Origin: an uncultured virus (IMG/VR IMGVR_UViG_3300034106_004008)
Taxonomy: Duplodnaviria; Heunggongvirae; Uroviricota; Caudoviricetes
Length of the DNA stretch: 64,000 bases
Reading direction: 5' to 3' (one strand)
IMG/VR virus record: IMGVR_UViG_3300034106_004008
Location: 1-64,000 of that record
Shown here in pieces: positions 24,863 to 51,409 of this stretch. Position 1 is the stretch's first letter. Each line of letters starts with the position of its first letter. Position numbers and translations under genes: made by a program. A model generated the notes under the pieces. It worked only from the letters and a program-made list of their open reading frames with translations. It did no database searches and was not told the DNA's origin.

Positions 24863-24968
24863 TAAAACATTGAAAAGAAAGGGGAAGAAATTCCCCTTTT
24901 TTTTATCTTAAAATTTGCACATTAAATTTATTGTACTTATCTTTGCATCAACAAAAACAAAACAAGAT

Positions 24969-39418: not shown

Positions 39419-39607
39419 ATGAAAAAGTTATTTATTTTATTGTTGGTTTCAGTTATGGCAACGGGAACAAGTTTTGCAAACGATGGTATCAAGTTAAAGA
39501 AACATAAAAAACGCACAAAGTATGTTCAGTGCGATGCGTACAAAACACACTATGCACCGATTAAACCTGAAAGACACAAGCACCACACTTGCGATGCTTA
39601 TAACTAA
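39419..39607 (+). CDS. small secreted basic protein with two CDAY motifs
   Basis: signal peptide ending SFA; QCDAY..TCDAY. Confidence 0.7.
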   Translation: MKKLFILLLVSVMATGTSFANDGIKLKKHKKRTKYVQCDAYKTHYAPIKPERHKHHTCDAYN

Positions 39608-39691
39608 AAAAAGAAAGGGGAAGAAATTCCCCTTTTTATTTGCAAGTTAAATTTATTTCATTTATCTTTGCATCAACAAATCAAACAAACA

Positions 39692-40972: not shown

Positions 40973-41264
40973 AAGAATAGGGTTGTGGATCAAAAGAGAG
41001 GGAACAAAAAAAGTTCCCTTTTTTTTATGTTAAAACTTGCAAATGAAATAAATTTAACTTATCTTTGTATCAACAAATCAAAATAAACAATGAGTATTCT
41101 ATTCGTCTTAACGCTTTTTTGCGGTGCTTTGTTAATCATGGCTGTGCTAATGTAAACAAAAGTGCTAATGCAAACAAAGGGGAAGAAATTCCCCTTTTTT
41201 TATGTTAAAACTTGCAAATGAAATAAATTTAACTTATCTTTATATCAACAAAACAAACAAACCT

Positions 41265-41405: not shown

Positions 41406-41512
41406 GGTAAACAAGAAACAAAGAAAGGGGAAGAAATTCCCCTTTTTTTTATGTTAAAATTTGCAAGTTAAATTTATTTCGTTTATCTTTGAACTATCAA
41501 AACAAACAAACA

Positions 41513-45129: not shown

Positions 45130-46704
45130 TTAAATAAGAATCTTCATCGTAGCTTTTATTCTCTCTATCTCTTCTTCCAATTTCTTTTTCTTGTTTGCGA
45201 TCTCGTTGTAATCCTTCGCGATTTCTTTGTTGGAACCAATCATATCCTTTGGATCCATATCTATCAATTGTTCCATCGTGAAATATTTGTACGATGTGTG
45301 TTCGTTCTTGTCAAGCACAACATCATCAATTGGAAATTCGTTTGTGTAGAATACGTTTAATTCACACTCGTTGTTGTAAATATATTTCTTCAGTGGTTTG
45401 AATGATTTCAACTCAACACCAGCTTCTTCTCTGATCTCTCTCACGATTGCTTCCTCTGGCGTTTCATTCTTTTCAATTCCACCACCAAGCATTCCGTATT
45501 TTCCTGGATTTGTTGTTTCGTCTTCGCTTCTCTTGAACAACAACGCTTCGTTGTCAATCACAATGAAAAGCAAAGCAACTCTCTTCATCTCCTTGGCTTC
45601 ATTCAAGCTGTAACCCTCTTCCTTTGTCTTGCCCCAAGATTTTCCCTTTCCTGGTGTTCCGCATGATGCTGGTGTTGGTCTGCATGATGGGTACTTGGCT
45701 CTCACCTCACCCTTTTGTCTTCCACAAGCCTTGCATTTTTTCTTTCCGTCAACTTTTCTGCATGTGTTGCAATCAACCCATCCTTTGCTTCCGCCACCAC
45801 CTCTTCTTGAAAACCATCCGTGAAGTCCGCTCTTTTTCTCCTTTGAGAAATCGGTTTTCTTCGCTTCATGCATTCCACCGTCAGTCTCCAAATAAGCATC
45901 CACCCATGTTTGAAGTTCATTAAAATCTGGAGCATATTCTTTTCGACCCCTCTTCCACGTCAAAGCATCGTGAGCCTTGGCGATCAAACCTTGCATTTCC
46001 TCTGGTGCGTTGTCAATCATTTGGATCTCCTCTTCCTTCAAACCTCTCCATATCTTTCCTCTTCTGCATTGAACGATTGCACCAGATCTATATGCTGATG
46101 GTTTGCTGTATTTTCTTCTCGCTATTCTTAAACAACGATCGGCTTTTTTCTTTTCCTCATATAAATTTTCATTCAATTCGAACTCATGTGATCCGTCTGG
46201 TTTAACAAAATACTTGTCAATTAACATTCTTGTGTTTTCTCGAGCAAACAACTCTGGATCGGATATAACATCAGATAATCTGATCGCCTTTTCCTCTGGA
46301 TCACCCCAATCGGATTGCATTAACAAAACATCCTCTGGTTTAATCACAACGGCTGGAATCTTATCAGCACCTGCGCGGTCATATGCGTATCTTCTATGGT
46401 TTCCATCGACAACCAAATATTTTGATTGGTCGAAGGGGTGTTGAATAACAAGTATTGGTGGCAGCTCTTCACCAGATTTCAAGGCTTGAACCATATCATC
46501 GACATTGGAACTTTTATCCATGTATTCCATATCCTTAAACGGTTCATTTGCTATGGTGTCATTTAAATTAATATCATCAACCTTTCCGTAATGTTCGTTA
46601 TCATTAAACACCTCAGATCCAACACCGTTTGCGTATATTTTCACATCCTCGGACATAATGCCCATCATGGATTGCATTTTCTTTATTTCCTCAGTTAGTT
46701 TCAT
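45130..46704 (-). CDS. multidomain protein: ParB/sulfiredoxin-like + Cys/Lys-rich domains + NUDIX hydrolase
   Basis: LPPILV..YLVVDGNHRRYA; GGGIEKNETPEEAIVREIREEAG Nudix box; true start MKLTEE at 46704 behind TATTTAT. Confidence 0.85.
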   Translation of the reverse strand: MKLTEEIKKMQSMMGIMSEDVKIYANGVGSEVFNDNEHYGKVDDINLNDTIANEPFKDMEYMDKSSNVDDMVQALKSGEELPPILVIQHPFDQSKYLVVDGNHRRYAYDRAGADKIPAVVIKPEDVLLMQSDWGDPEEKAIRLSDVISDPELFARENTRMLIDKYFVKPDGSHEFELNENLYEEKKKADRCLRIARRKYSKPSAYRSGAIVQCRRGKIWRGLKEEEIQMIDNAPEEMQGLIAKAHDALTWKRGRKEYAPDFNELQTWVDAYLETDGGMHEAKKTDFSKEKKSGLHGWFSRRGGGGSKGWVDCNTCRKVDGKKKCKACGRQKGEVRAKYPSCRPTPASCGTPGKGKSWGKTKEEGYSLNEAKEMKRVALLFIVIDNEALLFKRSEDETTNPGKYGMLGGGIEKNETPEEAIVREIREEAGVELKSFKPLKKYIYNNECELNVFYTNEFPIDDVVLDKNEHTSYKYFTMEQLIDMDPKDMIGSNKEIAKDYNEIANKKKKLEEEIERIKATMKILI

Positions 46705-46712
46705 AACTAGTT

Positions 46713-47021
46713 TTATTCTTCTTTTATCTTTAATAAATAGATTGGAATTGTTAAAATGCCAAATAAAAAACAGGTTAATGCAATTTCTTTTGTGTCCGTA
46801 TGAAAAAGCTCGTGGGACATCCATAAGGTATTGGCTGATAACCAAAAGGCCATCATCATCTCGAGCCACCTTTCCGACCCCTGTTTTACTGTTATGAGTA
46901 TTGTTGATAATATTATGGTTGGTATCGCGAAAGCCAATGAGAGTTCGCCCTGACCCAACATCCAGAACATATCCTTTGCGATCCACAATGGGATATGTAT
47001 TCTCTCAAAAAGTTTTACCAT
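46713..47021 (-). CDS. membrane protein
   Basis: HIPLWIAKDMFWM motif; about 4 TMs. Confidence 0.65.
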   Translation of the reverse strand: MVKLFERIHIPLWIAKDMFWMLGQGELSLAFAIPTIILSTILITVKQGSERWLEMMMAFWLSANTLWMSHELFHTDTKEIALTCFLFGILTIPIYLLKIKEE

Positions 47022-47076
47022 GTTCATAAATATTTTTGGATTTGACAAACTATTTATCAATAAATTGTTTTTTTCT

Positions 47077-47694
47077 ATGAAAAAGAATACATTAAATGAA
47101 GAAATTGCGAGACTCCGCAAAATAATGGGTCTTAATGAAGAAATTGATCTATCAAAGGTGGATAATCCAAATGCATACACCGATGATATTTTTAACTATA
47201 ATTCCGAAAGAGGTGGCGAGGAAATGGAAAGTGATTTCGATTTCGAAAAAGCCGCGATCGAATCCGCAAGTGGTGAAAAAGTTGTTCAAAGAGAGTTTGA
47301 CGATTATGACAGACCATTATATTATAGTTTAGCTGATGATAATGTACATTATTTTATAGGTGATAGTGATGATGGTAAGATAATCATTAAATACAACGCT
47401 GAGACGGGCGAACGTTACCCAATAGGTAAGTTGGATCATTACGATGAACCAAGAACTGAAATATTTCAGGAGGGTAGAAGTGAGAAATACGATGATTCGC
47501 ACGGATCACCATATGATCGCGGTCACGCCGATTCATATTACAGAAGACCCAAGAGCCCACATAAGTATCCAGAAGGAACTTACAAAGGTGAGAGAATCAC
47601 CGATTTAACACCAGAAGAAATCGAAGCGTACAACGCTGGTTATGAAGACAACGAAAGATTTGGTGATTATAAAGATTGGGGCGGAGAAGATTAA
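47077..47694 (+). CDS. putative virion-internal protein with LNEE tag and C-terminal HGSPYDRG.ADSYY domain
   Basis: tag plus recurrent phage domain. Confidence 0.75.
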   Translation: MKKNTLNEEIARLRKIMGLNEEIDLSKVDNPNAYTDDIFNYNSERGGEEMESDFDFEKAAIESASGEKVVQREFDDYDRPLYYSLADDNVHYFIGDSDDGKIIIKYNAETGERYPIGKLDHYDEPRTEIFQEGRSEKYDDSHGSPYDRGHADSYYRRPKSPHKYPEGTYKGERITDLTPEEIEAYNAGYEDNERFGDYKDWGGED

Positions 47695-47728
47695 AGATAA
47701 AAAGAAAAAGGGGCTTTCGCCCCTTTTT

Positions 47729-48544
47729 TTATTTCTTTAATAACTCATACGCTCTGGCCATTCTGGTCATCCCGATTCCACCACCATATCTTGGGAAGAA
47801 ATTGTGCTTCAAGAATTCCTCAAGCTCAGCCTCAACCCTTTCTTTTCCGAATAACTCGAACAACTTGGCGCAATACGCACCGTTCTCAATAGCATAAAAC
47901 ATTTCTCTCATCTTCTCAACATCGCAGCTTCTCTCGGCGGATCCAATTGTTTCCTGTCCGTAAAGAATCACATCAACCTTGTTGAAAATCCCATCGTTAT
48001 TGTGTTTCATGTTCCAGAATGGATTTGTTCTGATTGGGAAGTGTTGTAATGAAACAACATTACCCTTTTCATTCCACATTCTGGATTCATGCTCATCCTC
48101 AAGAATTGGTACCCCACCGTATTCCTCACACACATCATCGTATTTAACTTGAACCATCTCATCACCAAATCCAAGATAAGCCAAAAGGTCGCCTTCCATT
48201 TTGATTAAATCCTCCATGGTTCCCTTTGACTCAAACTCAAACATTGGGAAGATAAGCTCATGCCTTCCTGGGATTGGGTTCTTTTCTTCTCTGTACGATG
48301 TTGATACGCAAAATACGCCATTCCATTCTGGATTCTTTAACAACTCATACTCAAGCCACATCTGTCCAGTCTGTGGCAACGGCCAGATCAAACCACCATA
48401 CTCGAACGTTTTAACCGAGTGTGGGTTCTCACAAGCCGCGAGAATTGATAATCTTGATTGTGTTGGCACTTCCTTGAATCCTCTTTCAAGAAAGAATTTG
48501 CGCATCTTCTGCACGAGTTCATTGTAAGTTTCTGTGTTTTTCAT
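47729..48544 (-). CDS. class II aaRS catalytic-domain paralog lacking anticodon domain; probable asparagine synthetase (AsnRS-like)
   Basis: PLPQTGQMWLE, motif 2 YREE..RH..F.MFEFE, ETIGSAER, motif 3 GGGIGMTR. Confidence 0.8.
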   Translation of the reverse strand: MKNTETYNELVQKMRKFFLERGFKEVPTQSRLSILAACENPHSVKTFEYGGLIWPLPQTGQMWLEYELLKNPEWNGVFCVSTSYREEKNPIPGRHELIFPMFEFESKGTMEDLIKMEGDLLAYLGFGDEMVQVKYDDVCEEYGGVPILEDEHESRMWNEKGNVVSLQHFPIRTNPFWNMKHNNDGIFNKVDVILYGQETIGSAERSCDVEKMREMFYAIENGAYCAKLFELFGKERVEAELEEFLKHNFFPRYGGGIGMTRMARAYELLKK

Positions 48545-48572
48545 TTGTTTTTTTTTGTTTAATTTTTGGCGC

Positions 48573-48602
48573 AAAAAAAAATCCTGTCAAATGACAGGAT
48601 TT
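48573..48602 (-). terminator. intrinsic terminator in leader of AsnRS-like gene
   Basis: 11-bp inverted repeat AAATCCTGTCA/TGACAGGATTT followed by U-run on -. Confidence 0.75.
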
Positions 48603-48652
48603 CCAATTACTATTTTATTATTATTGTTATTGTATTTTCTTCTGAATCTCAT
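48587..48652 (-). CDS. putative Asn-rich attenuator leader peptide MRFRRKYNNNNNKIVIGNPVI
   Basis: 21-aa ORF with five consecutive Asn codons; stop inside terminator hairpin. Confidence 0.55.
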   Translation of the reverse strand: MRFRRKYNNNNNKIVIGNPVI

Positions 48653-50791: not shown

Positions 50792-51409
50792 TTAAAAATT
50801 AATCAATTTTTTCATATTAATAATCGCCTCATCCAGGCGATTATTTTTATTTTCTGATATTGGGTTTGCTGGGCCACGATTTGTTCCAAAGTCATAAGCA
50901 CCAGTATTTGATATTGGATTTGCTTTTCCTCTGGTTGTACCAAATTCGTATTTACCAGTATTTGATATTGGATTTGCTTTTCCTTTTTTAACTCTATCTG
51001 GTACTGGACTATTTGAGGCTGATGTCCCACCACTTGAACCACTTGATGTGCTCGATGTGCTTGACGAATCCTCTTCATTAATCTTAGGATCCCTGTACAT
51101 ATCTTCCTTGTGTGTGAAATCACGATTATCACCTTTATTAAAAACAAAACCAAATCTCTGGTAGAAATCTTTCAATCTGTTCACATTTCCACCATAACTG
51201 CTTGATGGTGTTAATGTTAATTTATAACCGTGTTGATCAGCAAGACTTGTTAAATCGTTCATAAAAGAAGTACCAATACCAGTTCCACGCATGTTAGGTG
51301 GAACCATAAATCCAGTGAGATATATCCTTTTGTGCTTTTCATTTGGGTATAACTCAAACCTGATGTCTGGGTACTTTTGTTTTAATTCGTCTTCGATATG
51401 ATGATTCAT
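50792..51409 (-). CDS. GNAT acetyltransferase with C-terminal (K/R)G(K/P)ANPI repeats
   Basis: VPPNMRGTGIGTSFM acetyl-CoA motif, FYQRFGF; three ANPIS repeats. Confidence 0.8.
   Translation of the reverse strand: MNHHIEDELKQKYPDIRFELYPNEKHKRIYLTGFMVPPNMRGTGIGTSFMNDLTSLADQHGYKLTLTPSSSYGGNVNRLKDFYQRFGFVFNKGDNRDFTHKEDMYRDPKINEEDSSSTSSTSSGSSGGTSASNSPVPDRVKKGKANPISNTGKYEFGTTRGKANPISNTGAYDFGTNRGPANPISENKNNRLDEAIINMKKLINF

Follow-up and report, generated by a model that had tools for sequence, protein, structure and literature searches.

An asparagine-codon leader and terminator ahead of an AsnRS-like phage gene: a candidate ribosome-dependent terminator-occlusion attenuator

What is a short open reading frame (ORF) with five consecutive asparagine codons doing directly in front of a gene whose product resembles asparaginyl-tRNA synthetase (AsnRS)? 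The question is raised by a 64,000-nucleotide stretch of DNA (the window), positions 1 to 64,000 of IMG/VR record IMGVR_UViG_3300034106_004008, a 76.7-kb viral record from a large lake phage with a completeness rating of 26%; the window has ~35% GC. A preliminary description of the window had proposed that the phage senses Asn-tRNA through this leader and thereby regulates its own asparagine enzyme. Our analysis points to a conserved leader and terminator tied to the enzyme gene, to a control that would work in the reverse of the classical direction, and to an enzyme more likely to serve pyrimidine synthesis than to make asparagine.

The leader ORF lies on the minus strand at 48652-48587 and has 21 codons (MRFRRKYNNNNNKIVIGNPVI). 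Its ATG shares the tetranucleotide ATGA with the TGA of an upstream 60-aa ORF (P0002, 48649-48831, minus strand). The run of Asn codons, AAT AAC AAT AAT AAT, occupies 48631-48617 (minus strand), 29 to 17 nt 5' of a hairpin, and the leader's own TGA (48589-48587) straddles the junction between the loop and the 3' arm of that hairpin. The hairpin is part of an intrinsic terminator (48602-48573, minus strand). Its 5' arm AAATCCTGTC (48602-48593) and its 3' arm GACAGGATTT (48588-48579) form a stem of 10 bp around the loop ATTT (48592-48589), all on the minus strand, and the stem is followed by a T9 run ending at 48573 and then by GCGCC. An A-rich spacer of 28 nt without a Shine-Dalgarno sequence (48545-48572, minus strand) separates the T-run from the ATG of the enzyme gene at 48544, which is 42 nt past the leader ORF. 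The ORF, the ATGA overlap, the five Asn codons, the stop within a hairpin with a U-run and the 42-nt gap are thus all in the sequence as first described, except that the stem has 10 bp and not 11. Folded in isolation, the terminator is worth -12.9 kcal/mol (z of the region -3.9), and it is the sole strong element in the minimum-energy fold of the window's leader region. A scan of the region against Rfam returned no family at the gathering score; a match to Phe_leader (25.3 bits, gathering score 55, E 0.14) spans the terminator alone.

By three controls drawn from the window, this arrangement exceeds chance. The window holds 23 sites with a hairpin and a T-run; the leader site is the only one that encloses the end of a short ORF with a gene 28 nt further on, while the other sites lie 5-27 nt 3' of a gene and the next gene, where present, mostly starts ~62 nt beyond them. 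Asn accounts for 6.5% of the residues in window genes, and NN within the first 20 codons is found in 6 of 109. Finally, among 138 random ATG ORFs of the window (8-26 codons, AT at least 0.68), an NN or longer Asn run occurs in one, and this single ORF, with at least five N, is evidently the leader itself.

Conservation of the leader upstream of homologues had been named as a way of checking the proposal, and it is found. A scan of IMG/VR gave 595 stretches encoding relatives of the enzyme, of which the best 80 were kept (loci are labelled L###); exclusion of the window's own clade (L002, L006) left 64 distinct upstream regions. In 51 of these, a short ATG ORF of at most 45 codons has its stop between -15 and +16 nt, counted from where a perfect hairpin with a T-run begins, and in three more an ORF of 41-44 codons runs through the hairpin and ends no more than 9 nt from the gene start. 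An ORF ending at or through the terminator is therefore present in 54 of 64 regions. One region (L014) has the hairpin alone, eight are without such a hairpin and in one the upstream DNA was too short. L014 forms one clade with L019 and L066, two of the 51, and in this clade a 93-aa upstream gene stops 13-16 nt before the stem. The T-run is separated from the ATG of the gene by 10-50 nt in the relatives (median 36), and by 10-13 nt in the clade L034/L060/L068/L079, which leaves no space for a separate promoter there. Within the window's own near-identical clade, to which P0002 is confined, the window and L002 share an identical leader and terminator; P0002 differs between the two by six synonymous and two non-synonymous changes.

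The terminator itself has been maintained through sequence change. Stem sequences vary by clade yet remain complementary (AATCCTGAC, AATCCCTTC, AATCCGTC, AATCCTCC, AAGTCCCTA and GAGGACT among them), and all six consensus stem pairs show double changes, that is, covariation among the relatives. In 2.9 million viral contigs there are 37 copies of an 18-mer that covers the stem end, the T-run and GCCCATA; 34 of them lie directly 5' of the enzyme gene, and the remaining three are GC-rich unrelated terminators. A promoter-like site of the form TTGAYT/TTTACA-16/17-TATATT lies closely upstream in 51 of the 56 regions that have the terminator; its distance to the leader ATG is exactly 8 nt in 28 regions and 11 nt in eight. 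The window has a site of the same form as this pre-leader promoter, TTTACT-16-TATATT, inside P0002 (48736-48763, minus strand). We consider it very probable that leader and terminator together are a genuine cis-regulatory element.

Does the Asn run belong to that element or does it merely reflect AT-rich DNA? Across 40 distinct leader peptides, Asn takes up 129 of 676 codons in frame; the two remaining frames give 52 and 31. We sorted the 40 peptides by eye into 21 clades, tested one member per clade, and required the shuffled controls to stay open in frame. With the lowest-Asn member of each clade and mononucleotide shuffling, 69 Asn were observed against 38.1 ± 5.7 expected, a count reached by none of 2000 shuffles; with the first member and dinucleotide shuffling, 73 were observed against 41.2 ± 5.4 (z 5.9, reached by none of 500). 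The stem sequence AATCC reads Asn-Pro in some frames, so tests that exclude the hairpin matter: with pre-hairpin codons only, the counts were 68 against 36.3 ± 5.7 (z 5.5) for first members and 63 against 36.2 ± 5.5 (z 4.9) for lowest members. Asn is the sole enriched residue in the phage leaders; in the dinucleotide test Arg came next (z 1.9), Lys was as expected and Ile was depleted (z -2.8). Runs of NN or longer are present in 12 of the 21 clades where 3.5 ± 1.7 were expected, and they lie mostly 10-33 nt 5' of the stem. The runs contain both AAT and AAC, and close relatives such as L050 and L051 are distinguished by synonymous AAC/AAT changes, which argues against plain repeat slippage. 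Before the stem the phage leaders are A-rich and not U-rich. The hairpin loops and tails are U-rich. An Asn-rich ORF before the cellular homologue L120 was dropped, as it sits in a divergent gene on the opposite strand.

How might such a leader act on the gene? As first described, there is no clear antiterminator, and a conserved one was not found among 21 representative leader folds, whose terminators are worth -9 to -15 kcal/mol. When the 3' arm was removed, the 5' arm was unpaired in 15 of the 21; in five of the remaining six the upstream fold is worth -0.3 to -5.5 kcal/mol, a pairing that is weak and not conserved, and in L028 two arm bases pair within a fold dominated by another hairpin. 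A candidate antiterminator in the window, formed by the 5' arm and sequence 5' of the leader ATG (-5.5 kcal/mol), is not conserved and was not adopted. Li et al. (PMC4824070) found in E. coli that a terminator a few bp past a stop codon is almost fully repressed, that full termination is regained beyond ~30 bp from the stop codon, that termination falls from ~90% to below 10% when the stop is shifted from 28 to 5 bp before the terminator, and that the repression is lost without translation; they also mention pyrBI attenuator experiments of Roland et al. Passages of the review PMC6524683 treat reiterative transcription and not pyrBI attenuation. The lack of a conserved antiterminator, together with a stop codon placed on the hairpin, suggests a mechanism like that of pyrBI and rph-pyrE and not like that of trp.

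In the mechanism that we propose, transcription from upstream would run into a strong intrinsic terminator 28 nt ahead of the gene, while the leader ORF would be translated as it is being transcribed. Leader translation would start mostly 8 or 11 nt past a sigma70-like -10 box in the relatives, and in the window through the ATGA coupling to the 60-aa ORF. A ribosome that keeps up with RNA polymerase as far as the stop codon would cover the 5' arm, so that the hairpin is blocked and the gene is on. If Asn-tRNA is scarce, the ribosome would be slowed at the Asn run, clear of the hairpin, and transcription would end with the gene off. The distance of 10-33 nt between Asn runs and stem, combined with a stop on the stem, thus predicts read-through if the leader is fully translated and termination if ribosomes lag at the Asn codons or do not start; the gene would be on during unimpeded leader translation, when Asn-tRNA is plentiful. 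Translation of the leader and its start site are inferred from sequence, as are the signal that is sensed, the direction in which the control works and the reaction of the enzyme; we hold the full model, a ribosome-dependent terminator-occlusion attenuator that senses through its Asn run, with moderate confidence. Of the original idea that the phage senses Asn-tRNA to regulate its own asparagine enzyme, the sensing is plausible in view of the in-frame Asn excess; the asparagine enzyme is probably not the right reading of the gene product.

The controlled gene (47729-48544, minus strand) encodes a 271-aa stand-alone class IIb catalytic core of the AsnRS/AspRS (aspartyl-tRNA synthetase) type, as seen by profile, motifs and fold. 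It matches Pfam tRNA-synt_2 (PF00152) at 3.9e-13 and PHROG 29758, a profile without an assigned function. A 41-member family profile matched AsnRS best (5.7e-14), then archaeal/eukaryal AspRS (1e-10), EpmA (6e-6) and asparagine synthetase A (2.4e-5), with E. coli-type AsnA not among its matches. The blocks Q..Q..LE, SYR.E, RH, E.E and E..G...R align to AsnRS (class II motifs 2 and 3) at ~20% identity, and the pocket blocks are AsnRS-like; the Q..Q..LE block is one that we take to be of the Asn/Asp type, in contrast with Lys-type enzymes. The alignment begins only at about residue 140 of AsnRS, so the N-terminal anticodon-binding OB domain is absent. An AlphaFold model (pLDDT 96.6) gave AsnRS and AspRS as top Foldseek matches (AsnRS E 2e-18, TM 0.72-0.81; PDB 2XTI, 8TC7, 1X54, 9SH8), a comparison of folds that does not separate AsnRS, AspRS and asparagine synthetase A. 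The NCBIfam AsnRS model scored 17.7 bits against a cut-off of 414, and the AspRS model was also far below its cut-off. The enzyme is therefore closest to AsnRS by sequence, and not to archaeal asparagine synthetase, the identity suggested in the preliminary description, against which the profile ranking, the gene fusions and the gene neighbours all speak. Nor is it the EpmA-type ligase that had been named as a refuting outcome, since the EpmA models reach 23.7 bits (cut-off 264) and 21.4 bits (cut-off 286.9).

The family to which the enzyme belongs is very large, with 678 representatives at 50% clustering, nearly all of ~270-300 aa among the 150 listed; a word-index search returned at least 8000 candidates, all at E no higher than 0.001. 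It extends over phages, Patescibacteria, DPANN archaea and intracellular bacteria. In the Prochlorococcus phages P-SSM7, P-SSM2 and P-SSM5 the homologue is annotated as 'tRNA ligase' and is followed within ~10 nt by an unusually long tRNA-Asn(GTT) gene of 87-88 nt (L082, 2278-2364; L083, 2286-2373; L084, 2265-2352), while no tRNA gene was found in the window.

If not asparagine, what would this family make? Two relatives are fusion proteins, one (53% identical) with dihydroorotate dehydrogenase and one (47% identical) with orotidine monophosphate (OMP) decarboxylase (P0132, 661 aa, and P0146, 588 aa). Three of 12 Pfam-annotated cellular loci have the order core, phosphoribosyltransferase, OMP decarboxylase, one of them with dihydroorotate dehydrogenase as well, and of 80 cellular loci searched by tblastn with these three neighbours, 16 (L108, L122, L143 and 13 more) have a pyrE-like gene, pyrF or pyrD no more than 6 kb away. 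We then looked for the pathway in five carrier genomes, of completeness not established, with models that were positive in 14 of 14 control genomes: aspartate transcarbamoylase (ATCase) and dihydroorotase (DHOase) were over the cut-off in none of the five, carB in two and pyrF in four. Fusions and operons with pyrD, pyrE and pyrF, combined with no ATCase or DHOase over the cut-off in those five genomes, suggest that the enzyme belongs with pyrimidine rather than asparagine synthesis. Judged by gene context, it more likely serves pyrimidine synthesis than makes asparagine, and the contexts suggest an undescribed entry into that pathway. More speculatively, and with low confidence, the unit might be a two-input kinetic switch on such a route, in which the core would use Asn, for which it keeps the pocket, and ATP to supply the synthesis of dihydroorotate or orotate, and a polymerase slowed by low UTP would be a possible second input. 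If this were true, the route would bypass the feedback-controlled steps of carbamoyl-phosphate synthetase, ATCase and DHOase. The enzyme would be licensed only when Asn-tRNA is plentiful, so that it would draw on a surplus of its substrate and the Asn-rich translation of the phage would not be starved, and the unit would be a phage-borne, substrate-sensing (feed-forward) amino-acid attenuator coupling amino-acid status to nucleotide supply.

Several observations weigh against the occlusion model with Asn sensing. Some leaders are poor in Asn (L003, one of 41 codons; L011, none of seven; L053, one of 15), the clades behind the enrichment tests were drawn by eye from related sequences, and eight of the 64 upstream regions are those without the hairpin. 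In most relatives the leader probably sits at or near the 5' end of the transcript and is leaderless, as read from hexamer spacing only; the window leader is without the relatives' adjoining promoter and, coupled to the 60-aa ORF, would need re-initiation. The absence of ATCase and DHOase matches counts for less in genomes whose completeness is not established. RNA data bear on no leader feature, be it start, stop or read-through: two metatranscriptome runs share words with the window (shares 0.12 and 0.06), and the six short RNA contig pieces that fall on it, at 47958-48457 and 48537-48566, touch neither leader nor terminator. A further difficulty is a second possible promoter, TTGACA-17-AAAAAT (48562-48590, minus strand), which is a match to the consensus only, at 10 of 12 positions, and places its -35 in the loop and 3' arm of the hairpin; it could drive the gene independently. 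Finally, the cellular homologues (L093-L162, mostly Patescibacteria) have a GC-rich hairpin with a T-run 0-50 nt before the gene and short ORFs that stop -8 to 0 nt from the stem and are not Asn-rich (for example L097, L104, L111, L119, L129, L135, L144 and L160), so the Asn codons may be an addition, or Asn may not be the chief signal.

The last point leads to a different reading of the same occlusion attenuator, in which it would sense the speed of polymerase against that of the ribosome, through UTP supply as in pyrBI and pyrE or through general translation capacity, and the Asn codons would only tune the pace. The pyrimidine genes around the family fit this, as do the Asn-poor phage clades, the U-rich hairpin loops and tails, and the T-rich stretch that the cellular homologues, with their non-Asn ORFs, often carry just 5' of the stem. 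It leaves unexplained, however, the Asn excess (z 4.9-5.9) and the NN runs (12 of 21 clades, with 3.5 expected). The stretch before the stem is rich in A and not in U in the phage leaders, and the cellular ORFs were counted without a chance control. We regard it as possible but fairly unlikely. One may also doubt that there is attenuation at all: the hairpin could end an upstream mini-transcript (a small RNA, a micro-peptide unit or the operon of the 60-aa ORF) and insulate the gene, which would be read from its own promoter overlapping the terminator. The TTGACA-17-AAAAAT match beginning in the hairpin would be that promoter, TTGNNN recurs at the junction of loop and 3' arm and TTGCCC past the T-run is conserved in relatives, the AT-rich spacers always supply -10-like hexamers, and a terminator followed by a promoter is the common layout elsewhere in the window. 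The spacing speaks against it, with 28 nt here and 10-13 nt in one clade where other window terminators have ~62 nt, and so does the dedicated promoter 50-80 nt before the terminator, which would be purposeless. This account also leaves unexplained the frame-specific Asn excess, the ORFs that end on the stem across unrelated leaders, and the tie of the unit to the enzyme gene in 34 of 37 occurrences, and we find it rather improbable.

The preliminary description had leaned on the logic of amino-acid biosynthesis, with the direction of control left open. In a classical trp/his-type attenuator, ribosomes would stall at the Asn codons under scarcity, the terminator would be relieved and a phage asparagine synthetase would be induced. 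An Asn run in a short ORF ahead of a terminator is what such a device would look like; the fold is also like that of archaeal asparagine synthetase A (3rl6, TM 0.73-0.77), and the tRNA-Asn(GTT) after the homologue in the three Prochlorococcus phages links the family to Asn. But a gene switched on at Asn shortage would require an antiterminator and none is conserved, so this logic is unsupported. Moreover, the stop on the hairpin predicts the reverse: a ribosome stalled at the Asn codons, 10-33 nt 5' of the stem, would not block the terminator but free it, by the distance rule of Li et al. (PMC4824070). The family profile puts asparagine synthetase A far behind AsnRS and does not match E. coli-type AsnA, and the fusions and operons indicate pyrimidine genes. 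The starvation-induced model fits least, and we consider it very unlikely. Terminator occlusion with sensing through the Asn run is the reading that we prefer.

The surroundings of the unit complete the picture of the locus. Just past the enzyme gene, a two-way terminator hairpin (47703-47730) is common to this gene and to a convergent 224-aa ORF (47020-47694, plus strand). Further away, a 618-aa ORF (45130-46986, minus strand) has a region weakly like the N-terminus of ParB, scoring under the Pfam cut-off, and a C-terminal NUDIX hydrolase domain, and a 205-aa ORF (50792-51409, minus strand) matches positions 2692-2807 of a 3925-position PHROG profile without an assigned function. Near-identical terminators of the form AAAGGGGAA GAAA TTCCCCTTT are found at 24878-24904, 41176-41201 and 41424-41450 on the plus strand and at 39606-39635 on the minus strand. 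On the plus strand between 39.9 and 41.8 kb, several terminators are followed by a shared TTTTTATGTTA motif, with the next gene often ~62-64 nt on; between the small genes, these recurrent terminators with TTTTTATGTTA look like a repeated terminator-promoter cassette. For 40 window proteins, PHROGs annotation returned almost no functions and gave no help in placing the host, and a nucleotide search against phage records found no match. The closest matches in genome collections (L085, L086 and L087, 71-81% identity) are short contigs in metagenome-assembled genomes of Bacteroidota (Spirosoma, Cytophagaceae, Fluviicola), and the terminator is present on L087 too; these contigs may come from phages and have been binned together with a host, a weak hint at a Bacteroidota host.

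A search of open PMC papers and bioRxiv found no Asn-codon attenuator, no phage leader-peptide attenuator, no combination of a codon run with terminator occlusion and no account of the enzyme family. If the predicted direction of control is right, the codon run would report plenty and not shortage, the reverse of what classical attenuators do. The family of the controlled gene is very large and uncharacterized, and the leader offers a simple handle on what the enzyme consumes.

Compared with AsnRS, the phage enzyme shares the class IIb core and the motif blocks but lacks the anticodon-binding domain. Archaeal asparagine synthetase A (3P8T, 3RL6, 3REU), a paralogue of AsnRS, is likewise a stand-alone AsnRS-like core, of 285-294 aa, and has the same fold (TM 0.73-0.77, rmsd 2.6 Å), but its sequence relation to the phage enzyme is much weaker than that of AsnRS, and relatives of the phage enzyme occur with pyrD, pyrE and pyrF. 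On the regulatory side, the classical leader-peptide attenuators trpL, hisL, pheL, thrL, leuL and ilvL respond to Trp, His, Phe, Thr, Leu and Ile/Val. With the trpL type the phage unit has in common a short ORF with tandem codons for one residue, an intrinsic terminator between this ORF and the gene, and a ribosome that would read the signal. It differs in having no antiterminator or alternative hairpin, in a leader stop that lies on the terminator and not well upstream of it, in the inverted direction of the predicted control, and in a regulated enzyme that is probably not a biosynthetic enzyme for the amino acid in question. At pyrBI (pyrL) and rph-pyrE of E. coli and Salmonella, a close ribosome stops the terminator hairpin from forming, and there is no antiterminator. 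The phage unit resembles these in its ORF, which would be translated and extends to or through an intrinsic terminator just ahead of the regulated gene, in needing no antiterminator, and in a regulated gene that appears, judged by context, to belong to pyrimidine synthesis. Unlike them, it has leaders with tandem Asn codons, mostly 8 or 11 nt past a -10 box and probably leaderless, no evident U-rich polymerase pause tract 5' of the stem in the phage versions, and no sequence homology to pyrL, and it is carried by phages.

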